NCBI RefSeq assembly: GCF_964194155.1
Contig: NC_135908.1
Span: forward strand, 4,650,001 to 4,714,000
Direction: 5' to 3'
Source: Cetorhinus maximus
Lineage: Eukaryota
DNA length: 64,000 bases
The position numbers and the translations under genes are program-made. Position 1 is the stretch's first letter. Every line of letters begins with the position of its first letter. Below are positions 5,100 to 46,541 of this stretch, piece by piece. Below the pieces are notes generated by a model that was not told the origin of the DNA, ran no database searches, and saw only the letters and a list, made by a program, of their open reading frames with translations.

Positions 5100-6480
5100 A
5101 CCCCCAGATTCCAACCCCCACCCCCAGATCTCCCTAAACCACCCACCTCCCAAAAACCCCACTGACCCTCTCAGATCCTGTCCCCCCTACTCCAGATCCG
5201 TCCGCAAACTGGATGCCCCCAATGATTCCCCACTCTGGATCTCCCCGCCTCCCCCAATCCCCCACCCCAATCACACCTCCCCCACCACCGCCGGCCACCC
5301 CACCTCAGCCCCCTCCCCCACTCCTCTCTCCCCCCATCCCCCAACTCTCCCCCTCCTCTTCCCCCCACTCCCCCCCCTCCTCTTTCCCCCACCCTCCACT
5401 CTCTCACACTTTCCCCCCACACCCCTCCCCCCCACTCCACTCTCTCCCCCCTCCCCCCACACTCCCCTCCCCTGCACCTCCCCCCACTCCCCTCCCCTCC
5501 CCCCCACTCCACTCTCTCCCCCCTCCTCCCCCTACCCTCCTCCCCTGCACCTTCCCCCCACTCCCCCTCCCCTCTCCCCACTCCCTCCCCCTCCTCTCCC
5601 TACCCCCCCCACCCACACTCCCCCTACCCCCCCACCCACACTCCCCCTACCCCCCCACCCACACTCCCCCTACCCACCCCCCCACACTCCCCCTACCCCC
5701 CCCACCCACACTCCCCCTACCCACCCCCCCCACTCCCTCCACCCCCCCTACCCCCCCCCACTCCCCCTACCCACCCCCCACACTCCCCCTACCCCCCCCA
5801 CTCCCCCTACCCACCCCCCACACTCCCCCTACCCACCCCCCACACTCCCCCTAACCCCACCCCCCACACTCCCCCTACCCACCCCCCACACTCCCCCTAA
5901 CCCCACCCCCCACACTCCCCCTAACCCCACCCCCCACACTCCCCCTAACCCCACCCCCCACACTCCCCCTAACCCCACCCCCCACACTCCCCCTAACCAC
6001 CCCCCACACTCCCCCTAACCACCCCCCACACTCCCCCTAACCACCCCCCACACTCCCCCTAACCACCCCCCACACTCCCCCTAACCCCACCCCCCACACT
6101 CCCCCTACCCACCCCCCACACTCCCCCTACCCACCCCCCACACTCCCCCTAACCCCACCCCCCACACTCCCCCTAACCCCACCCCCCACACTCCCCCTAA
6201 CCCCACCCCCCACACTCCCCCTTCCCCCCCCCCACACTCCCCCTTCCCCCCCCCCCACACTCCCCCTTCCCCCCCCCCCCCACACTCCCCCTTCCCCCCC
6301 CCCCACACTCCCCCTTCCCCCCCCCCCACACTCCCCCTTCCCCCCCCCCCACACTCCCCCTTCCCCCCCCCCCACACTCCCCCTTCCCCCCCCACACTCC
6401 CCCTTCCCCCCCCACACTCCCCCTAACCCCACCCCCCACACTCCCCCTAACCCCACCCCCCACACTCCCCTCCCTTCCCA
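5100..6480. repeat. C-rich/G-rich minisatellite (22-24-bp units, e.g. ccccaccccccacactccccctaa) in STOML1 intron 1
   Basis: Tandem units directly visible at about 5600-6470 with variant ends ctac, ctaa and cttc, decaying into low-complexity C-rich sequence toward 4860. Confidence 0.95.
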
Positions 6481-14036: not shown

Positions 14037-14281
14037 AAAAAGCAGAAAATGCAGGAAGAACTCAGCAGGTTTGGCAGCATCTGTGGAGAGAGAAACAGAG
14101 TTAACGTTTCGAGTCCGTATGACTCTTCTTCAGAGCTAAAGAGAAATAGAAATGTGATGGAATTTAAACTATACTAGAGAAGGAGAAACTCCACAGATGT
14201 TGCCAGACCTGCTGGATTTTTCCAGAATTTTCTGTTTTTGTTTCCGATTTCCAGCATCCGCAGTATTTTGCTTTTCTCTTA
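14037..14281. mobile_element. Short Penelope-like insertion with inverted tails and a hammerhead motif
   Basis: Minus arm with CTGAAGA-a-gagtc-atacg-gactc-GAAACGTT, plus arm ending catccgcagtattttgcttt; TSD-like gggccaaactgtta (14023-14036) and gggccaaatagtta (14282-14295). Confidence 0.75.
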
Positions 14282-16518: not shown

Positions 16519-16730
16519 AGAAAATGTTGGAAAAACCCAGCAGGTCTAACCACATCTGTGGCGAGAAAGGCAGAGTTAACGTTTCCAATCCGTATAACCG
16601 AAGAAGAGTCATACAGATTCAAAACGTTAACTCTGTTTCTCTCTCCACAGATGCCATTAGACCTGCTGAGTTTTTCCAGCATTTTCTGTTTTTGTTTCAG
16701 ATTTCCAGCATCCGCAGTATTTTGCTTTTA
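16519..16730. mobile_element. Short Penelope-like inverted-tail insertion
   Basis: Two opposed copies of the PLE tail joined inside the hammerhead motif; TSD tccacttcaaattc (16505-16518) and tccacttcaaactc (16731-16744). Confidence 0.75.
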
Positions 16731-22328: not shown

Positions 22329-23631
22329 ATCTGTTCTGATCGCATCTGTTCTGATGATGCTACCTTCAAAAACAGTTCCTCTGACATGTCCTCCTTCTTC
22401 CTTAACCGAGGTTTTCCACCCACGGTCGTTGACAGGGCCCTCAACCGTGTCCGGCCCATCTCCCGCGCATCCGCCCTCACGCCTTCTCCTCCCTCCCAGA
22501 AACATGATAGGGTCCCCCTTGTCCTCACTTATCACCCCACCAGCCTCCGCATTCAAAGGATCATCCTCCGCCATTTCCGCCAACTCCAGCATGATACCAC
22601 CACCAAACACATCTTCCCTTCACCCCCCCCGGCAGCATTCCGTAGGGATCGTTCCCTCCGGGACACCCTGGTCCACTCCTCCATCACCCCCTACTCCTCA
22701 ACCCCCACTTATGGCACCTCCCCATGCCCACGCAGAAGATGCAACACCTGCCCTTTCACTTCCTCTCTCCTCACCATCCAAGGGCCCAAACACTCCTTTC
22801 AAGTGAAGCAGCATTTCACTTGCATTTCCCCTAACTTAGTCTACTGCATTCATTGCTCCCAATGCGGTCTCCTCTACATTGGCGAGACCAAACGTAAACT
22901 GGGCGACCGCTTTGCAGAACACCTGCGGTCTGTCCGCAAGAAAGACCCAAACCTCCCTGTCGCTTGCCATTTTAACACTCCACCCTGCTCTCTTGTCCAC
23001 ATGTCTGTCCTTGGCTTGCTGCATTGTTCCAGTGAAGCCCAACGCAAACTGGAGGAACAGCACCTCACCTTCTGACTAGGCACTTTACAGCCTTCCGGAC
23101 TGAATACTGAATTCAACAACTTTAGATCTTGAACTCCCTCCTCCATCCCCACCCCCTTTCCGTTTCTTCCCCCTCCCTTTTGTTTTTTCCAATAATTTAT
23201 ATAGATTTTTCTTTTCCCACCTATTTCCATTATTTTTAAATCTATACCTGTAATGCCCTGTCAGTCTTTCCACCCCACCACCACTAGAGCTGTACCTTGA
23301 GTGTCCTGCCATCCATTCTTAATTAGCACATTCTCTTAGATAATATCACCACCTTCAACACCTCTTTGTTCCTTTATCTGTGACATCTTTTGATTATCTG
23401 CTCCTATCACTGCTTGCTTGTCCCTACAACCACCCCCCCCACCCCCAACTTCTCTCCCCCCACCACCCCCCCCACCTTAAACCAGCTTATATTTCACCCC
23501 TCTCCTAATATTACTCAGTTCTGTTGAAGGGTCGTGAGGACTCGAAACATCAACTCTTTTCTTCTCCGCCGATGCTGCCAGACCTGCTGAGTTTTTCCAG
23601 GTAATTCTGTTTTTGTTTTGTTCTCTACTTC
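22329..23631 (+). mobile_element. 5'-truncated Penelope-like element with GIY-YIG endonuclease C-terminus, inserted in the ERV
   Basis: ORF includes FLNRGFP, CxxxxCxxC linker (CPRRRCNTCP) and VYCIHCSQCGLLYIGETKRKLGDRFAEHL; premature TGA at 23073 is CGA in the 35-36 kb copy; hammerhead motif at about 23516-23555; flanking agaactact at 22320-22328 and 23632-23640. Confidence 0.9.
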
Positions 23632-24911: not shown

Positions 24912-25009
24912 TCTGATGAAGGGTCATACGGACTCGAAACGACAACTGTATCCCTCTCCGCAGATGCTGTCAGACCTGCTGAGTTTTTCCAGGTATTTTT
25001 GTTTTTGTT
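24912..25009 (+). mobile_element. 98-bp Penelope-like micro-insertion starting at the hammerhead core
   Basis: tCTGATGAagggtcatacggactcGAAAcgacaactg...gatgctgtcagacctgctgagtttttccagg; TSD acaggtttg at 24903-24911 and 25010-25018. Confidence 0.8.
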
Positions 25010-27981: not shown

Positions 27982-28123
27982 TTTTCAAAAATTCAATAAT
28001 TTCCTCCACTGGTCTAAAACCGCACAGCCCTTCAAATGGAGTCAGTGCTATGGCCACTTCTGGTTTGTGGTTTTTATCTGGGTAGCGATCTGGAAACTGA
28101 GCATGGAGTCGTACAGCTAGTTC
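27982..28123 (-). CDS. MPI: MPI exon 4
   Basis: 142 nt, tcttttccag|GAA...AAA A|gtaaga; [25 protein letters not shown] carries the type I PMI signature YxDxNHKPE. Confidence 0.97.
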
Positions 28124-29685
28124 CTGGAAAAGACACAAACTCTGTAAAACTATGAGCCATGCAGCACTGACTAATCTCTGTACAATTCAGAAAAAGGCCA
28201 TATAAGTTATATAACAATACAGTACGGCATGCTGCTTTCTGTAAAAAAATATACGTGTTTATATTTTTCAACGTGCTTGAGCTCTGGGACAGGAGGCAGG
28301 GACAGGATGAAGCACTTCCAGGTGTAGCAAAAACTTAGGGTCAATCTCAATTCATTCTGTCCAGTGTGGAGGCATAACTTTACCCACTTTGCTCCAGTTA
28401 AGTGGGAAGAGTTCTGCTTCATTATTTTTGGCAAAATCATAAATAAATGTATAAATAACACATTTATGACTTTACAAACAGTAGAAAGTGGATATAAAAG
28501 CTGTTTCACTGACTTAACTCCAACCTGAGGAGAGTTCCTTAATGTGCCCATGTAAATAAACATCAGCTATACTTATGGTCTCCAGTGAAAGTGGCAATCA
28601 GATTGCATCAGTTAAATTAAGGATAGTTCTGTACTGTGCATTTGTCTTTAACTGAGACAGCTCAAACTTTACTTCATTTAGGACCCTTACAGTTGGCAGA
28701 GAGACAGGAGGCTTTTGATCAATCAGCCTTGGCTGGAATTAAAAATACCAGAGGTGAAAGTAGGGCATGTAAACCACTCAGTCGCCAATGTGCAAAAAAG
28801 GACTACAAACTGAAACATTTTCTTTGTTTCAGCATATTTGGAAACACTAAATTTTATTTATGCTCAGATGGGTCAATGTACACATCTAACTAATCTGCAC
28901 AGTTGGTTGTTATAAGCAGGTGCATGCACTTTGTCAGTCTAGTTGGAAGGGTATATACAAAATGTTGCATGGTTGTTCACTCTGCCTATACACTTGGTCA
29001 ATGTGGGCAATGGTCCAATGCATTCTCTTTCACTCTATACCACTGATTTTGTCGGGATTCCAAATTAAGCAGTTTGCCATCCTACAAAATTTTTCTTTTT
29101 AATTGTCTTTAGCATCCCAAAGAAAAGGCAGTGAAATGTACACAGTTCGATCTGATTCCCACTGTAATCGGAGATCAAACTGGGACCCATGAGGGAATAC
29201 CTGAATTCAACGGATTTCTGCCAGTCTGGAGTCAGACAGATTGGCATAAGCAGAACAAGCATAAGGTTTTGACAGTTCTGCATTAACTTATTAACACATT
29301 CTTTACATTGCTGGATACCAGTAAGATATTATTCTGTAACAATAGGAACGTTTTCCTGTGGGCAACTGCCCCCCTATCTTTAAAAGGCAGGACACAGGCA
29401 TCTGGAAGTGTGTCAATAGCTGGAGATGGAAATCACTGTCAAAGGTAAGAAGTTTTGCTTTTGCACGAGATACATTTCAGCACAAAGCCTTTTGAAATGA
29501 CATTCAGGTTCCACACCAAGCTTTCCTTTCTTAGAAGCACAATTTTGCTCAGGACTTAAGATTCTAGGTGTACAAAAAATATGTCCAAGATCAAAATGTA
29601 GATTCCATGCAAATTTGCATAGTGGTAATTTGCCCGTTTAACTAGGAACACTCTTAAAGTCGTAATTAATCGTTTCTTCACTTAC

Positions 29686-29886
29686 TTTGTTTGGGTGAGC
29701 TTGAATAGATAACGAGATGTTGACCGAAAGCACCTTGAACAGAAAAGGCAGCTGCCCTTGGAAAATATCTTTGACCTTTGACCCCAAACAGTCGGGATGC
29801 TCAGCAATCCATTCCCCAAGAGTCTTCTGGGAAATTCTGTTGTCGCAGATCATGGCGTCCCCTTTGGGATGTGCCCCCATCCATAA
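29686..29886 (-). CDS. MPI: MPI exon 3
   Basis: 201 nt, ttttctattag|TTA TGG ATG...AAC AAA|gtaagt; [11 protein letters not shown]...[22 protein letters not shown]. Confidence 0.97.
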
Positions 29887-30590: not shown

Positions 30591-30805
30591 ATATAGGCAA
30601 AATACTGCGAATGCTGGAGATCTGAAATAAGAACAGAAAGTACTGGAAAAACTCAACAGGTCTGGCAGCATCTGTGGAGAGAGAGATACAGATAACATTT
30701 CGAGTCCAATATAACTCTTCTTTGGTGTTTTAGAAAATTTCATAAAAATGTAAAACTTTTTTTAAAAACCGCTCAGTTTTTCCATTACTTTCTGTTTTTA
30801 TTTCA
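30591..30805. mobile_element. Older short Penelope-like inverted-tail insertion
   Basis: Minus arm gcaaaatactgcgaatgctggagatctgaaataagaacagaaag...tttcgagtcc and short plus arm ctcagtttttcc...; TSD attcttgtctgta (30578-30590) and attcttttctgta (30806-30818). Confidence 0.65.
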
Positions 30806-31605
30806 ATTCTTTTCTGTATCTGTCCACAAGTGAATTTGCACATCAAGCAAACCTTCAGGTTTAGTCATGGAGGCAAAAACCCCAGGATAAGAAATAGTTG
30901 GATACTGGCATTTTGTGGTGTGGGGAGGAATTGTAGACCTTTCTACGTAGAGGACAAATTAGATTGGGCTGAATAGCCTAGATAAATATGGATGAGGAAG
31001 GTCATAACATCCAGTAACTACATCCACTTGAACAGGCCTTTTTCACATCTGGTCCAAAAGGCACATCTGACAGTGTAGCACTCTTTCCACACAGCACTGA
31101 ATTGCCAGTCTAGATTACGTGTTCAAATTACTGAAATGAAGCTTGCTAACACAAACTTCTGACAACTGAAAGCACCACTGCTGAGCCATGCTGATTCGAA
31201 AGCTCTTAAAATTATTATATTAAGCAGTTAAAGAGTAGTTATGAGCACAGCATCACAAGAGAGTGGAGATGCAGCCTCATGTCAATGTGCCACATCCCCA
31301 AGCCTCTGGTCTATCCACCTTCCCTATCTGCAGAACTGAGCAGGGACCGAGCACGACTGCTGAGAGAAAAACGGAGAGCCCACCCCAGGGTGATCTCTCC
31401 TGGGCACCTGGCTCAAAGCAGCACTGATGGAGGCCAGAGAAGCACCAACATTAACGGAACAGCCAGCGAAAAAAATAGGAAAATAAAGTTCACTCTCTCC
31501 CAAAAAAGTAGTTTACTGACAGCATGACCCTTATTGAAAGCTGATCTCCCACTCAAAACAACCACCTCAGATTCTGTTTACATAAAGTGAAGTGAACAGC
31601 AATAC

Positions 31606-31733
31606 CTCAGCATAGGGTTTCTCCTGCTCAATGGCTACAGAGGGATCATCACATAAAGTGAGTTTTGCCACCTCACTCTCCAGGCCAACCTTCCCCCAGG
31701 CATAATGCTGCACGGCACACTTCAGCGGGAACA
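31606..31733 (-). CDS. MPI: MPI exon 2
   Basis: 128 nt, ttttgtttttccag|TG TTC CCG...GCT GAG|gtattg; (V)FPLKCAVQHYAWGKVGLESEVAKL...KPYAE. Confidence 0.96.
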
Positions 31734-34700
31734 CTGGAAAAACAAAAGATTGATGATCTCTATTGGTCTCAAAATTACAACACAACATGTGGTGCAGGTT
31801 GGAAGAAAGATACAGGCCTCGGTTTTAACTTTCCAACCAATCATGCAGTAAGAAAGCTGCAAATCTACGCAGAACAATGCAAAAGGTTATTTTTACAATT
31901 CAAACAGGACTTTGAGTTTGCCCCTCCCACTTGCATCCAATCTCCAGGTTCATATTTGCATCAGACAAGCCAGGAGGGAGACGCATGAATAGATAGGTAG
32001 AATACTTCTTACCTTAATGTGCTTACACAAGTAAACTGCCAGTAGCACTGCCCATGATTAATTGATAAGTACGCATTCTTTTAAATTCCAATATTGTGAC
32101 AATGGTGGACAAGGGGTCTTAGAAATGCAGGACACCGAGCTATCTAATGGCCAGAGCCTCACTGCAAAAGCTCATCAAATGGGAAATGTTGACAGCCATT
32201 GACAAAGTCAGATGTTGACACAAACTTTACCTAAAATACTAATAACCAGGATGTGAGTGCCTTATTCTCAAAAACTTTGCATATGTTTGTATTGCTATCC
32301 CCACACAACACTTAAAAACCCTGGAATCCCAGGAAATAATAAACTATTTCATGACTTAATCAGTCCCTGTGACCTGGTGTAATATATACTGGGGGAAAAA
32401 AATTCCCAGGAATAAACTAGGAGTTATTTAATGATGGAACATTGCGGCGATAGTGTTGCAATTATTAATCTTTACCTGACAGGGTCATTGAGCATCCACA
32501 CAGAGCATATTATCACATTGACAGCTGCTCTAACCACAAAAGCAAATCTAAAATAGATACACACCCGGCAATGATTACACAAGTACAATCTTACCTGCGA
32601 GTCACATGTGACATTCAAAAACCAACCAGCTGGCTCAGTGGGTGAATGCAGTCACAGAGACCAGGTTTAACCAGAGCTCTCTGACGCTAGCAGGTGCAGC
32701 AATTGGGCCACTACATTTGAGCTTGGGACGATCACTCCTCAGTGACTCCTACAGATCATAATGACAGGCAAAGACACAAATCATATTCAACTGCGATGCC
32801 CTCTGCAGTTGAACAGGCTTGGGCACAGTACCCCGCAAGAAATCAGCACCTTAATTTTAAAGACCTTAATCAGATGACCTCTAAGTCTTCCTGTTTCTCA
32901 ATCCACATGGTGTCCTTCTGAACTCTTACAGGCCAGAGTATTCAAATCCTAGTCTATCACAAGGTAGCTGATCCCTGTCAGAGTGAATAAAACATTTATT
33001 CAACCTAATTGCACTTTTGGGCATGAACGGAATCCTTAAACTAAACGACCAACTTGAAATCGTTCCAAGTTATCTGTTATACTACCTTAAAATTCTGATA
33101 TGAGCTCCATTGCTAGAATATCTCCTTCGAATCACTCCCAAGTATCCCATTCATGTATCTAGAACATGTGCTTCATTCATTATCTTACAAGTTGATTAGC
33201 AAGCCTAATGTAAACTTTCAGCAACTGGGCACCTTCCAAACAGTATCAAAGTCTATGTCCAAGGGTTTGCCCACTATGGACAAAGTACTGGGAAAGTTCC
33301 ACACAGTCCTTCTTTGCTTATATGATTATTGATTTACCCCATGGCAATTTTTCTTTAAAAAAACTTTTGTTTTCTTTAATTAATCTGCTAGGCTGCATTT
33401 TACTGCTGGCCGTGCAGATAGACTGGCTGAATGCTATTCACTACTGGTTCACTGTAATAGAAGAATCTGACAGCAAGGTTGCCATCTCTGACTAATTTTT
33501 GCCATGTGGTCTTCAATCCTTGTGCAGACATGTCTTCCATGCCAAGATTCTGTCCTGTACCTGGAGCTGTACCTCCACAATGAATACTTTGCCTGTCACT
33601 CTCTAAAATATCTCCTAGACCTGCAATAAAAACAAGCAATGACTGAATTATAAAGTCTAGGGGATGCCCAAGTTACAAAAGATGCTTTTTCTACCTGTAT
33701 TTCATAAAGGCTGAGAACTATATTAGAACCTCTTCGTAATAACATACAGAACATCCTTAATGGTTCTCAGGATCTTAACATTGCAATTTCTCTGTTCAAT
33801 GATTTTAAACATTCAGATTAGAAGGATGAACCTGTTGACAAGATGAATGAGTGCAGAAATGATGAGAGAGATGAGGAAACCTTTTCTTTAAATGCGCCAA
33901 GTTATGACCTAAAATATGCTGTCAGAAAGAGTGGTGGTAGCAGATTCAATAATAACTTTCTAAAGGGGGTTGGAGGAAAAAGAAGAAAAATGGCAGAACC
34001 ATGAAAAAGAGCATGGGGGTGGGGGTGGGGGTGGTAATTGGATAGTTATTTTTTAAAGAACCAGGACAGGAACAAAGAGCCGAATTGTCTCCTTCTGTGC
34101 TGTGAGAATCTATGTAAATTCTGGAAAAATACCCATGAATAACACCAATCTCATTTTATTGCATTACACAGAAAGGATATGATTGATTGATTATTCACTA
34201 ATATCTGGTTTCGAAATCAGTCCACAATCTGCACATCAGTGTGGATTTAAAATTTTTCAGGTCATTTTTCATTTTATTTGCCTAACAGGACATAAATGAT
34301 CACATGCTGCCAAGCCACGAAGCATGACATATGTTCCATTGTCTCTTGAATGATGAACAGGTACAAGTTCACTCGTTGCTTATAAATCAAGTCCTTTTTT
34401 GACTAAATTAAGGGTGCATGGAGTCCAATTTTAAATCATAGCAACAATACATTACAGCTCAAAAAGTCAGTCCCTGAACTGTTTTCACAATAACTACGTC
34501 AAACTTATTGATCTATCTGTTGCTGATCATTCCAAGAACGTAGTAGCCAGGTCAAGAAAGCCACAAATCAGCACATACCTGCTGGGGCCAAACAAGGAGG
34601 TAAGGGCCCGTGGGATCCACGGCAATTTGGCAAATTAGATCCAAAATTGGTTTAGTGGCAGGAGGCAGAGGGTAATGGTCAAAAGTTGTTTTTGCGATCG

Positions 34701-35090
34701 GAAGCCTGTGACAAGTGGTGTACCCCGCAGGGATCAGTGCTGGGGCTCTTGCTGTTTGTAGTGTACATTAATTATTTAGACATGAATGTAGGAGGTATGA
34801 TCAGTAAGTTCGCAGATGACACGAAAATTGGTGGTGTCGTAAACAGTGAGGAGGAAAGCCTTAGATTACAGGACGATATAGATGGGCTGGTAAGATGGGC
34901 AGAGCAGTGGCAAATGGATTTTAATCCTGAGAAGTGTGAGGTGATGCATTTTGGGAGGACTAACGCAGAAAGGGAATACACAATGAATGGTAGGACCCTA
35001 GGAAGTACAGAGGATCAGAGGAACCTTGGTGTACATGTCCATAGACCCCTGAAGGCAGCAGCACAGGTAGATAAGGTGGTTAAGAAAGCA

Positions 35091-36545
35091 AAAAGCTAAA
35101 AGCTACTGCGGATGCTGGAAATCCAAAACAAAAACAGAATTACCTGGAAAAACTCAGCAGGTCTGGCAGCATCGGTGGAGAAGAAATCAGTTAACGTTTC
35201 GAGCCTTCACGGCCCTTCGGCAGAACTGAAGCATAGTTAGGAGAGGGGTGAAATATAAGCTGGTTTAAGGTGGGGGGGGGCGGGGGGGGAGAGAGAAGTT
35301 GAGGGTGTGGTGATTGTGGAGATAAGCAAGCAGTGATAGGAGCAGATAATCAAAAGATGTCACAGACAAAAGGATCAAAGAGGTGTTGAAGGTGGTGATA
35401 TTTGTCTAAGAAAAGTGCTAATTAAGAATGGAAGACAGGACACTCAAAGTACAGCTCTAGTGGGGGTGGGGTGGAAAAGACTAACAAGGTTTTAGTTTTA
35501 GATTTAAAAATAATGGAAATAGGTGGGGAAAGAAGAATCTATATAAATTATTGAAAAAAAAGGTGGGGGGTGGGAGAAACGGGGTGGGGATGGGGGGAGG
35601 GGGAGTTTAAGATCTAAAGTTGTTGAATTCAATATTCAGCCCGGAAGGCTGTAAAGTGCCTAGTCGGAAGATGAGGTGCTGTTCCTCCAGTTTGCGTTGG
35701 GCTTCACTGGAACAATGCAGCAAGCCAAGGACAGACATGTGGGCAAGAGAACAGGGTGGAGTGTTAAAATGGCAAGCGACAGGGAGGTTTGGGTCTTTCT
35801 TGCGGACAGACCGCAGGTGTTCTGCAAAACTGGGCGACCGTTTTGCAGAACACCTGCGGTCTGTCCGCAAGAAAGACCCAAACCTCCCTGTCGCTTGCCA
35901 TTTTAACACTCCACCCTGTTCTCTTGCCCACATGTCTGTCCTTGGCTTGCTGCATTGTTCCAGTGAAGCCCAACGCAAACTGGAGGAACAGCACCTCATC
36001 TTCCGACTAGGCACTTTACAGCTTTCCGGGCTGAATATTGAATTCAACAACTTTAGATCTTAAACTCCCCCTCCCCCCATCCCCACCCCGTTTCTCCCCC
36101 CCCACCACCTTTTTTTTCAATAATTTATATAGATTCTTCTTTCCCCACCTATTTCCATTATTTTTAAATCTAAAATTAAAACCTTGTTAGTCTTTTCCAC
36201 CCCACCCCCACTAGAGCTGTACTTTGAGTGTCCTGTCTTCCATTCTTAATTAGCACTTTTCTTAGACAAATATCACCACCTTCAACACCTCTTTGATCCT
36301 TTTGTCTGTGACATCTTTTGATTATCTGCTCCTATCACTGCTTGCTTATCTCCACAATCACCACACCCTCAACTTCTCTCTCCCCCCCCGCCCCCCCCCA
36401 CCTTAAACCAGCTTATATTTCACCCCTCTCCTAACTATGCTTCAGTTCTGCCGAAGGGCCGTGAAGGCTCGAAACGTTAACTGATTTCTTCTCCACCGAT
36501 GCTGCCAGACCTGCTGAGTTTTTCCAGGTAATTCTGTTTTTGTTT
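35091..36545. mobile_element. Palindromic Penelope-like insertion (two inverted arms of about 708 bp, 9-nt spacer)
   Basis: Left arm about 35123-35830 (minus) and right arm 35840-36548 (plus) are near-perfect reverse complements; mirrored ORFs end ...FAEHLRSVRKK...LNIEFNNFRS; exact 14-bp TSD tggttaagaaagca at 35077-35090 and 36546-36559. Confidence 0.95.
36442..36484 (+). ncRNA. Minimal type I hammerhead ribozyme motif (mirror copy at 35187-35229, minus)
   Basis: tcagtt CTGCCGA a gggcc gtgaa ggctc GAAA CG TT aactga: helix I tcagtt/aactga, helix II gggcc/ggctc, palindromic ACGT in place of helix III, as in Penelope-associated dimeric hammerheads; core position 6 is C rather than A. Confidence 0.72.
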
Positions 36546-37888
36546 TGGTTAAGAAAGCATATGGGATACTTGCCTTTATTAGCTGGCATAGAATGCAAGA
36601 GCAGGGAGGTTATGTTGGAGCTGTATAAAACGCTAGTTAGGCCACAGCTAGAGTACTATGTGCAGTTCTGATCGCCACACTATAGGAAGGATGTGATTGC
36701 ACTGGAGATTCACCAGGATGTTGCCTGGGCTGGAGCGTTTCAGCTATGAAGAGAGACTGGATAGGCTAGGGTTGTTTTTCTTAGAGCAGAGAAGTCTGAG
36801 GGGGGACCTGATAGAGGTATACAAAATTATGAGGGGCAAAGATAAAGTAGATAGGAAGAAACTTTTCCCCTTAGCGGAGGTGTCAATAACCAGGGGGCAT
36901 CGATTTAAGGTAAGGTGCAGGAGGTTTAGAGGGGATTTGAGGAAAAAATTTTTCACCCAGAGTGTGGTTGGAATCTGGAACACACTGCCCAAGGGGTGGT
37001 AGAGGCCAGAACCTTCACAACGTTTAAGAAGTATTTAGATGAGCAGTTGAAACGCCATAGCATACAGGGCTACGGGCCAAGTGCTGGAAAATGGGATTAG
37101 AATAGATAGGTGCTTGATGGCTGGCACAGAGACGATGGGCCGAAGTTATGTAACTCTACGACTGTGTAGGTTAATTCAGACCAGCAATCACATACAAAGT
37201 CACTGCAAAATGAAGACAAAAATAAACACTTGTATTTATATAGCACCTATCATGACCTCAGGACATCCCAAAGTACTTCACAGTCAACTAAGTACTCCCT
37301 AAAAGTGTAGTCACTGTTGCAATGTAGAAATCTCAGCAGCCAATGTTTACACAGCAAGATTCCACAACAAACAATATTAACTAGTTTTTTTTAGAACAGT
37401 GATGTCAATTGAGACACCAAGGGCATCAGGGATAACTCCCCTGCTCCTCTTCAAAATAGCGTCCAAGGATCTTTTAAACCCGCCTGCCCCTGCAGACAGG
37501 ACCTCAGTTTAACATCTCATTCGCACCTCTCGACACTGCTACACTCCCTTGCTTTCCTGTCTACCCCCTATAAGCTTTGAATATTTTTAAGGCTGAGTTA
37601 GATTCTTGATAAACAAGGGAATCAATGACCCTGCTTCCACTGCTCTCTGGGGAAGAGCATTCCACAGACTAATGACCGTCAGACTTAAAATACTTCTGTT
37701 TATTGCCACCTTAAATGGGAGGCACCTTATTTTTAAACTATGCCTCCTAGTTCTAATCTCTCCCATTAGGGAAAACATCTTCTCAGCCTGTAAATTCCCC
37801 TCAGGATCTTATATGCTTCAATAAAATCACCTCTCATTTTTCATGATCTTGTCAAATGACAGACAAGCTCAAGGAGTCAAATGGCCTA

Positions 37889-38440
37889 TAGGAAGTATGT
37901 TAACATCAGACAGAAAGTGCAACCAAGAAATAAGACAAAGGATTGGAATGACCAAAGACACATTTCAAGAAATGGAAAAGATTATGATCAACTCAAAATT
38001 AGCCATGAAAACAAAGCCGAGAATCCTGGAATGCTACATCACACCAATTTTGACACACGGAAGAGTGTGTCGGATGACCAGTGAACCAATGCAGAGAAGA
38101 ATTGAGGCTGCACAGTTGTGTCTACTCATGGTCCTAATTCATATGTTCGTATGGCTTTTGAGGCAAATAATGATGATATCTTGGACAAGCCACAAGAGGT
38201 GCTAGTAAAATCTGAGACCAAAAGAACTCTGCTGACCAAGATCAGGAAGAAACAGTTGGAGCTCCTTGGGCACATAATAAGAAATCATGATTTAGAAAGT
38301 CTGAAGCTGATGGGAACGATCGATGGGAGAAGAGATCAGGGTAGACAAAGAACGACACTTTTTGAGAGCGCCTCACAAACTGGATGAATGTACCGCCAAC
38401 AAAGATGATCCACGCCTGGAGAGCATGATTAACGTGGAAG
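37889..38440 (+). mobile_element. RTE-clade LINE 3' fragment
   Basis: GSMLTSDRKCNQEIRQRIGMTKDTF...TKPRILECYITPILTHG...EAAQL/WLLRQIMMISWT...IRKKQLELLGHIIR...GTIDGRRDQGRQR, typical RTE ORF C-terminal motifs. Confidence 0.8.
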
Positions 38441-38686
38441 CCCACGGTTTCGAACACCCTCACAGGGCATCCACCCTGCCAGCCTAGACTTTTGTGCTCA
38501 AGTCTCTGGAGGGGGACTTCAGCCCCCCCCCTAGCCTTTTGACTCAGGCGGAGAGAATACAATCAAGTTGCCAAGTTAAAATTTGCTATGTTAGAAAGGT
38601 TAACACTGCAAAAATTGCATGGATGCAGCAGGAAAAGTGAGGGGGGGGGGGGTTGCAGATGTCTCTGTAGCTCTGCTTTGGGATTG

Positions 38687-39121
38687 CCTGGTGCTGCTAA
38701 GTGGCCCTGGTGCTGCTGGTGGCCCTGGTGCTGCTAAGTGGCCCTGGTGCTGCTAATGGCCCTGGTGCTGCTGGTGGCCCTGGTGCTGCTGGTGGCCCTG
38801 GTGCTGCTAATGGCCCTGGTGCTGCTGGTGGCCCTGGTGCTGCTGGTGGCCCTGGTGCTGCTGGTGGCCCTGGTGCTGCTAAGTGGCCCTGGTGCTGCTA
38901 AGTGGCCCTGGTGCTGCTGGTGGCCCTGGTGCTGCTAAGTGGCCCTGGTGCTGCTAAGTGGCCCTGGTGCTGCTAAGTGGCCCTGGTGCTGCTAAGTGGC
39001 CCTGGTGCTGCTGGTGGCCCTGGTGCTGCTGGTGGCCCTGGTGCTGCTAAGTGGCCCTGGTGCTGCTAAGTGGCCCTGGTGCTGCTGGTGGCCCTGGTGC
39101 TGCTGTGGCCCTGGTGCTGCT
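38687..39121. repeat. 18/19-bp minisatellite (gtggccctggtgctgctg / gtggccctggtgctgctaa) in MPI intron 1
   Basis: About 23-24 tandem units directly visible. Confidence 0.96.
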
Positions 39122-39260
39122 GATGTGACCGTTCAGAAGTCACAACACGCAGTCCTCGCTCATCCCCGAATAACCGTTACCGAACACTCCAGCCTGCAGC
39201 TACCTCGGTACCACAAACGGCCATCACCCGGTGTCGCCGTTCCCCTGACTGGAATCTCAC

Positions 39261-39408: not shown

Positions 39409-39544
39409 TGAAGGGTCATAAGGACTCGAAACGTTAACTGTGCTCTTCTCCACCAATGCTGCCAGACCTGCTGAGTTTTTCTAGGTATTTCTGTTTCTGT
39501 TTTTGTTTTGGATTTCCAGCATCCGCAGTTCTTTGCTTTTATTT
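39409..39544 (+). mobile_element. 136-bp Penelope-like micro-insertion in the MPI/SCAMP2 intergenic region
   Basis: Starts inside the hammerhead core (tgaagggtcataaggactcgaaacgttaactg) and ends catccgcagttctttgcttttattt; exact 14-bp TSD ctggctctggatgt at 39395-39408 and 39545-39558. Confidence 0.85.
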
Positions 39545-46377: not shown

Positions 46378-46541
46378 GATGAAAACAAAATACTGTAAAT
46401 GCTGGAAATCTGAAATATAAACAAAGAAGACTGGGAAAACTCAGCAGGCCTGGCAGCATCTGTGGCGAGAGAAACAGAGTTAACATTTCGAGTCTGTATA
46501 ACTCTCTCATCAGATGCTTCCAGACCTAATGAGTTTTTCCA
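46378..46541. mobile_element. 164-bp Penelope-like inverted-tail insertion
   Basis: Minus arm runs to CTGATGA-gagagttatacagactc-GAAATGTT; short plus arm cagatgcttccagacctaatgagtttttcca; exact 14-bp TSD gtaatccttgctaa at 46364-46377 and 46542-46555. Confidence 0.82.

Follow-up and report, generated by a model that had tools for sequence, protein, structure and literature searches.

Near-Perfect Head-to-Head Insertion of a Penelope-Like Element in MPI Intron 1 of Cetorhinus maximus, Likely Primed from Both Ends of One Staggered Cut

How can a retrotransposon leave a long, near-perfect palindrome within a single target site duplication (TSD), with tails of unequal length at its two ends? This question is raised by a locus in the 64,000-nt stretch of Cetorhinus maximus DNA analysed here (contig NC_135908.1; hereafter the window, whose positions serve as coordinates throughout), in which two head-to-head copies of the 3' end of a Penelope-like element (PLE) lie in intron 1 of MPI, the gene for mannose-6-phosphate isomerase. 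We consider it likely that the palindrome is a young insertion of an endonuclease-bearing (EN+) PLE with a Neptune/Nematis-type linker into an older long interspersed nuclear element (LINE), and that it was primed from both ends of one 14-nt staggered cut. The locus itself is ordinary, one of thousands, and is useful as evidence of mechanism.

The palindrome and its target site

The two arms (Table 1) align over 708 positions with three mismatches, at 35647/36023, 35571/36099 and 35495/36176, and one 1-nt indel. Between them lies a 9-nt spacer, TGGGCGACC, in the sense orientation of the right arm, and the whole unit is bounded by an exact 14-bp direct repeat, TGGTTAAGAAAGCA. The right arm comprises 78 codons, the 3' untranslated region (UTR), a hammerhead-like motif and the U-rich tail of the element; it terminates at TTTTGG, the TGG of which also belongs to the TSD. 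The left arm is longer by 32 nt of tail, in which 5 of 6 bases pair with the 3' end of the target. An earlier preliminary description of this DNA had given arms of about 708 bp, a 9-nt spacer, a 14-bp TSD within a LINE and a left tail about 32 nt longer, and all of these were found to be exact.

The motif AAAC-TGGGCGACC-GTTT was kept in all 29 other copies of the element that were retrieved as loci, and 27 of these read ...AAAC-TGGGCGACC-GTTTTGC with G or A two bases ahead (CGCAAAC, CACAAAC or TGCAAAC). The reading frame across the centre is KLGDRF. This conservation establishes that the centre of the palindrome is native element sequence, as had been claimed from the same six codons, and that the spacer belongs to the right arm.

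With the insert removed, the target is a motif of the second open reading frame (ORF2) of a LINE, which we take from its motifs to be a CR1. Both copies of the TSD carry an AAAGCA variant seen in 5 of the 100 target-motif matches listed; since the two share so rare a variant, the repeat is a true duplication. The ORF2 frame of the host (...VDKVVKKA / YGILAFIS...) runs on across the TSD, and both TSD 3' ends run on into antisense element sequence that begins in the tail. In a comparison with about 80 other copies, one or two substitutions in each arm proved private to it. The arm divergence of 0.4% means that the insertion is young or that its arms were homogenised, and the "persistence" of the site, on which the preliminary description had remarked, therefore tells little.

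These observations bear on whether the palindrome exists at all as a single insertion. Three other origins, namely an assembly artefact of a fold-back read, insertion on two independent occasions, or copying from a master element that was itself palindromic, are together very improbable: read fold-back does not yield an exact TSD of a rare allele, unequal tails or arm-private substitutions, the centre contains no second TSD, and that centre occurs once in the genome. What room is left to them comes from the public sequencing data: when contigs of four public runs were compared with the left flank, left arm and centre (90% likeness), other copies of both repeats dominated the 79,000-123,000 records obtained from each run, which gave nothing for or against the locus.

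Two start sites and two target ends

The unequal tails suggested a comparison with other insertions of the family. We analysed 141 non-redundant loci (151 fetched, 10 dropped as duplicates), made up of 28 pairs from tail matches, 33 other regions and later sets; these were top-scoring matches and the first matches on contig C1, rather than a random draw. A pair was called when opposite tails were accompanied by a duplication of at least 10 bp beside both ends, and each arm was classed separately. An arm was scored as short-tailed if its end lay within the first U-rich tract of the tail or ahead of it (that of L051 ends a few bases past it), and as long-tailed if its end lay in the second tract.

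Among the 68 TSD-flanked head-to-head pairs, 66 consisted of one short-tailed and one long-tailed arm, with a single short+short and a single long+long pair making up the rest. Independent choice of the two ends would give at most 50% mixed pairs (P = 8e-18). The sole long+long pair, L040, has a false TSD made of element sequence. Unequal tails in other head-to-head pairs had been set beforehand as a test of the proposal that both target ends were primed, and the proposal thus extends well beyond the locus for which it was made. The TSD measured 13-15 bp in 58 of the 68 pairs, with a mode of 14 (37 of 68). Twelve head-to-head anchor pairs within 4 kb were excluded for want of a TSD of at least 10 bp (four short+short, two long+long, six mixed); of these, L075 joins arms of different ages and L095 runs past the fetched stretch.

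Which arm reaches further into the element separates priming at both ends from the folding back of one cDNA. Had a single cDNA folded back, the arm that holds the spacer would also hold the longest tail. This is not the case at the present locus. In the 66 mapped pairs, the short-tailed arm extended further 5' in 35, the long-tailed arm in 21, and the two tied (within 5 nt) in 10; arm lengths were taken from BLAST ends, which are good to a few nt, and the table of lengths was compiled without L056, L040, L085, L096 and unmapped pairs. Fold-back of a single cDNA is thereby excluded for 35 of the 66 pairs, which agrees with the earlier contention that it would not suffice.

Two further observations concern the outer junctions. 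At both types, the target matched the native continuation of the element over 0-6 nt, as is expected of priming junctions. Copies that had passed for single-armed were also informative: L015 and L098 (12 nt each) and L141 (49 nt) carry an inverted remnant that starts at the other start site and resembles an aborted second priming, and single-arm copies with a match of 10 or more end at either site (21 short, 13 long, a few spurious). Taken together, the short+long pairing, the side of the spacer, the junction matches and the remnants favour two primings, with each target end using one of the two sites; on this combined sequence evidence, such a scheme appears to be the best account and is well supported. 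Priming at both ends is inferred here from junction geometry and counts. As a separate observation, the short arm of L061, L063, L104, L113, L119 and L141 stops as much as about 20 nt ahead of the first U-rich tract and is nonetheless paired with a long arm.

The same data bear on a published explanation, in which self-priming, or fold-back of a single strand, generates a symmetric palindrome from which the endonuclease then removes one tail. Palindromes at inverted junctions and one-sided tails fit the descriptions in the accessible portions of PMC3846280 and PMC8557442, and the shared source of the arms (see below) would follow as well. We nevertheless regard this explanation as unlikely. 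Fold-back from the long-tail primer would put the spacer on the long-tailed arm, whereas here and in 35 of the 66 pairs it lies on the short-tailed one; 39 of 54 centres hold filler or at most 1 nt of microhomology; and the other start site is exactly where the tiny inverted remnants begin. The form of the explanation in which the cDNA is anchored to the target is largely refuted by these findings, and a hairpin formed off target and trimmed by the endonuclease on either arm is compatible with the sequence. A symmetric fold-back insertion could also have lost 32 nt by deletion between two copies of TTTTGG at the right junction, and the symmetric precursor would indeed carry a 6-nt direct repeat around the missing 32 nt. 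We give this almost no credence, since the right end is the common short end of single copies (L003, L007, L011 and L028) and of the 66 pairs, and a deletion cannot be so regular.

Source of the arms and joining of their ends

If both target ends were primed, it has to be asked whether the two cDNAs copied the same template. Raw edit distances between copies are dominated by homopolymer indels, and 51 non-CpG subfamily-diagnostic sites were used instead. Over 33 pairs, the arms were discordant at 34 of 1008 such comparisons, as against 35-55% with other copies; at the present locus, none of 36 diagnostic sites differed. This low discordance indicates that the arms of a pair came from one source. 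Arms longer than 200 nt ended at most 30 nt apart in 10 of 40 pairs, where permutation gave an expectation of 1.66. The excess persisted when this locus was left out (9 of 39, P = 5e-5) and in the set found by the UTR motif alone (5 of 16, P = 2e-4). The excess of near-equal arms points to one RNA copied twice to a common end. Equal ends that are specific to each locus suggest either that both cDNAs ran off the same end of one RNA, one strand being displaced, or that a single cDNA folded back and then met a short cDNA from the other end.

The second of these is a rival that varies only the later steps. Both target ends would be primed, and one cDNA would fold back at a short inverted match, copy itself and anneal to the short cDNA of the other end. 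Such a course does not require a long RNA to be copied twice, it accounts directly for equal arms and a shared source, a 4-nt stem is available at this centre (up to 7 bp with a bulge), and abortive second arms of 12-49 nt do exist. It fares less well at the centres. Only the present locus among the ten near-equal long pairs has 4 nt of microhomology, the remainder having an overlap of 0-2 nt or filler, and centres with so little overlap favour run-off and end joining over priming from a hairpin. Arms that differ by 300-3000 nt and overlap by 0-1 nt are also poorly explained by fold-back. We therefore hold this course to be possible and somewhat doubtful.

Of the 54 centres examined, 22 contained filler, 17 had 0-1 nt and 15 had 2-4 nt of microhomology; in the filler-free set, 3-4 nt occurred in 9 of 32, against 2.0 expected. 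Judged by these junctions, the joins appear to be ordinary microhomology-assisted joining. A special role had been proposed for the native micro-hairpin at the centre. This was not upheld: 9.8% of element positions allow a 4-bp fold-back within 40 nt, and no other palindrome centred at this micro-hairpin was found in the 4 Gb genome, where the centre occurs once. The micro-hairpin marks the position of the join and is not the cause of the equal arms. The centres of L043, L115, L122 and L066 include additional segments of 21-139 nt that derive from other parts of the element, which suggests that the template was switched while the ends were being joined.

In the preferred account of the locus, the enzyme of the element, probably as a dimer, would cut both strands 14 nt apart and leave two 3'-OH overhangs. 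Each end would prime a cDNA through 2-6 nt of pairing with the RNA tail, one end using its first U-rich tract and the other its second, which lies about 35-45 nt further downstream; a short-tailed and a long-tailed arm would result. Both cDNAs would copy the same source, most likely one RNA, and the cDNA primed downstream would displace the other. Here both would have stopped at most 14 nt apart, at a common RNA end or block, after which the cDNA 3' ends would have been joined via the 4-nt microhomology AAAC/GTTT and filled in.

Several points weigh against this account. One clean short+short pair with a 14-bp TSD, L056 (G000:C1:6389650-6390490), is an exception to the pairing rule. A shared source is compatible with one RNA, with two RNAs of one master gene and with later gene conversion between the arms. 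Two or three diagnostic sites were discordant in 11 of the 33 pairs. When about 139 copies were compared by raw edit distance, the closest one was the partner arm in only 15 of 32 pairs. Long arms were unequal in 30 of the 40 pairs, with a weak rank correlation of arm lengths (rho 0.28, P = 0.085). Sequence alone cannot separate two annealed long cDNAs from a folded-back cDNA that meets a short one. Finally, for the Poseidon PLE of Anolis (PAc), the portion of PMC11167929 available to us reports no difference in start site between the strands and no target homology.

We are evenly divided on the wider proposal that PLEs integrate by programmed twin priming, in which a dimeric reverse transcriptase (RT)-endonuclease would make a 14-nt staggered cut and each DNA end would start a cDNA on the same RNA from its own fixed site, the two sites being 35-45 nt apart and the second cDNA displacing the first. 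As part of that proposal, near-perfect palindromes would be the cases in which both cDNAs reach the same RNA end, and single-arm copies those in which one start was aborted. If true, the one-sided tail, the inverted 5' copy and the fixed length of the TSD would all be accounted for by one step, and hundreds of long near-perfect palindromes would have been seeded in this genome. PLE integration would then be a two-ended reaction on a double-strand break, unlike canonical target-primed reverse transcription, and the family a large source of long inverted repeats and of potential intronic double-stranded RNA. The short+long pairing, the occurrence of the spacer on either arm, the shared arm source and the excess of equal arms give predictions that are directly testable in the existing PLE in vitro assay.

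The preliminary description implied that such a palindrome is rare, and in this respect it was mistaken. Close head-to-head pairs numbered 28 among the 100 tail-motif matches listed, 7 among the 100 ORF-end matches listed and 13 among the 100 UTR matches listed. Extrapolated from the start of contig C1, these figures indicate that roughly one third of the sampled insertions are two-armed, of the order of 10,000 genome-wide, and about 1,800 would have both arms longer than about 530 nt. Near-perfect palindromes up to 1.7 kb were among those recovered: L094 (G000:C1:1403900-1407050) has arms of 1153/1138 nt with 1138 of 1138 aligned bases identical, L121 (C1:37670950-37674850) has arms of 1707/1701 nt, and L112, L114 and L116 are further examples. 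The present locus is therefore typical rather than unique.

The element, its host intron and known systems

The nature of the element was judged from L098, a 97%-identical copy with an open frame of 924 aa. This frame matched Pfam RVT_1 with E = 1.9e-6 and 28.2 bits, just below the cut-off of 29.6. A Pfam search of the frame gave no match for GIY-YIG; a GIY-YIG-like end, FYCIRCSQCGLLYIG...EH...CH, with the cysteines and histidines of the CCHH motif, was assigned by eye. Ahead of it, the linker reads CPRRRCNTC, i.e., CX4CxxC, which fits the CX2-5CxxC zinc-finger-like linker that defines the Neptune and Nematis clades in the part of PMC8557442 available to us; by this motif the element is probably of Neptune or Nematis type. 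Partial tandems like pseudo-long terminal repeats (pLTRs), in which the tail passes into the beginning of the ORF, occur in L103, L107, L117 and L138. The family thus combines an ORF with RT and C-terminal GIY-YIG and pLTR-forming partial tandems with 5' truncation, an inverted 5' copy, a one-sided tail of 30-40 nt and a TSD, all of them traits of EN+ PLEs. Exact matches in the genome numbered 40,361 for a 27-nt tail motif, 26,345 for an ORF-end motif and 7,120 for a UTR motif; the PLE family is young and very large in this genome.

The preliminary description had also spoken of opposed hammerheads. The two motifs do lie on opposite strands, and a transcript therefore carries one of them. For the minus-strand transcript, a 708-bp stem is predicted (-1439 kcal/mol), in which the sense hammerhead-like motif would be buried; such a stem would be a candidate substrate of ADAR or Dicer, as the preliminary description had suggested. 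A search of Rfam returned no hammerhead match, only chance matches to miRNA hairpins below the gathering score. The core here is CUGCCGA, not CUGANGA, and CUGUUGA or CUGCUGA occurs in other subfamilies. Many short arms of L032-L057 and of several single copies (L058-L069) end 92-100 nt upstream of the end of the tail anchor; this stop coincides with the 5' edge of the hammerhead motif, upstream of the predicted cut, and may mark an RNA start.

MPI lies on the minus strand, with PF20511 exons at 31600-31734, 29671-29886 and 28007-28123. Exon 1 is placed tentatively at 39276-39261 from its CpG-rich context, a GT donor and the phase required by exon 2. With this position, the insert falls within a 7.5-kb intron 1, in agreement with the earlier assignment. 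No host function is indicated for the insertion. About 150 bp upstream of the putative start codon of MPI, an old hammerhead-plus-tail relic of the same PLE family is found at 39425-39529, and a GC-rich minisatellite with a unit of about 18-20 nt lies just within intron 1 (38690-39110). Elsewhere in the window, other copies of the family occur at 14054-14265, 16622-16719, 22340-23620, 24933-25009, 30603-30704 and 46399-46492; among these, the one at 14.1 kb is a small head-to-head pair and another is a single arm of 1.3 kb. A long C-rich low-complexity repeat with extreme GC skew spans about 5500-6200.

Table 1. Features of the palindromic insertion and of its host sequence, in window positions
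Feature	Position	Strand	Remarks
Host: decayed CR1-type LINE (presumed), 3' part of ORF2, FADD RT motif	34656..37140	+	3' limit approximate
TSD, left copy, 14 bp	35077..35090	+	Empty site is a LINE motif with 4,034 exact genome matches
32-nt extra tail of left arm	35091..35122	-	Ends in second U-rich tract (long-tail start site), about 7 nt before the usual end
Left arm: antisense element 3' end (GIY-YIG C-terminus, 3' UTR, hammerhead-like motif)	35123..35830	-	98% to a natural copy
Hammerhead-like motif, minimal type I, left arm (sense in MPI pre-mRNA), CUGCCGA core	35187..35229	-	Mirrors right-arm motif; no Rfam match
AAAC/GTTT, 4-nt microhomology of both arms at the join	35827..35830		
C-terminal 78 codons of PLE ORF (KLGDRF...NNFRS*), putative GIY-YIG endonuclease end	35827..36063	+	924-aa open frame of L098 ends alike
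9-nt native spacer of right (short-tail) arm	35831..35839	+	
Right arm, sense	35840..36548	+	Ends in first U-rich tract (short-tail start site); 3-nt TGG microhomology to TSD
Hammerhead-like motif, minimal type I, right arm	36442..36484	+	Stems I and II fold, with a stability (z -0.31) that does not exceed that of shuffles; no Rfam match
TSD, right copy	36546..36559	+	
MPI intron 1 (exon 1 inferred)	31734..39260	-	

The head-to-head layout, including its one-sided tail, is already known for endonuclease-bearing PLEs. As far as the accessible parts of the two papers go, insertion units of EN+ PLEs such as Pen2a of Adineta vaga carry a copy that is inverted and 5'-truncated, bear a 30-40-nt tail at only one end and have palindromic junctions (PMC3846280; scheme in the legend of Fig. 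2 of PMC8557442). Our locus resembles them in the inverted copy, the single TSD around the whole unit, the one-sided tail, the junction palindrome and, as a candidate, the hammerhead motif of the pLTR. It differs in that both arms are long and nearly equal, so that the whole insert is a palindrome, and in that the TSD is narrow in length (mode 14), which the same parts do not describe as fixed. The proposals published there are self-priming on an antisense template (PMC3846280) and EN-mediated resolution of an intermediate (PMC8557442), whereas the counts obtained here favour two primings. In the PLE literature, to the extent covered, the making of inverted one-tailed insertions is described as undefined. 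We came across no paper that assigns PLEs a separate start site for each target end, nor anything on it in the available part of 10.64898/2026.07.22.740005; older Penelope papers and the supplements of PMC11167929 and PMC8557442 lay outside the scope of this search, and the model may thus be in print.

The closest biochemical parallel is PAc, whose behaviour agrees with priming at both ends. In vitro it cuts and extends both strands and initiates reverse transcription at two sites flanking the tail, and a dimeric form is predicted for it; in the part of PMC11167929 that was available, these start sites are AC-rich and are tied neither to inverted insertions nor to one site per target end. The family studied here shares with PAc the two internal RT start sites that bracket the tail. 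It belongs to a different clade, PAc having no zinc finger in its linker, and its start sites are U-rich rather than AC-rich.

A final comparison is with twin priming of LINE-1 (L1), in which, according to the accessible parts of PMC12016303 and 10.1101/2024.08.27.596794, both target strands prime on one RNA, the cDNA ends are joined by microcomplementarity and an inversion results inside one TSD. In that system one primer uses the poly(A) and the second falls by chance on an internal position; overlap between the cDNAs is small or absent, with a median of 12 bp where it occurs. The PLE insertions agree with this system in that both target strands appear to prime cDNA. Unlike those of L1, the starts lie at two fixed U-rich sites separated by 35-45 nt, and double copying of the same 700 nt gives a true inverted repeat with both 3' ends outside. 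Because the starts are fixed in the tail and the same stretch is copied twice, the palindrome falls outside the definition of L1 twin priming.

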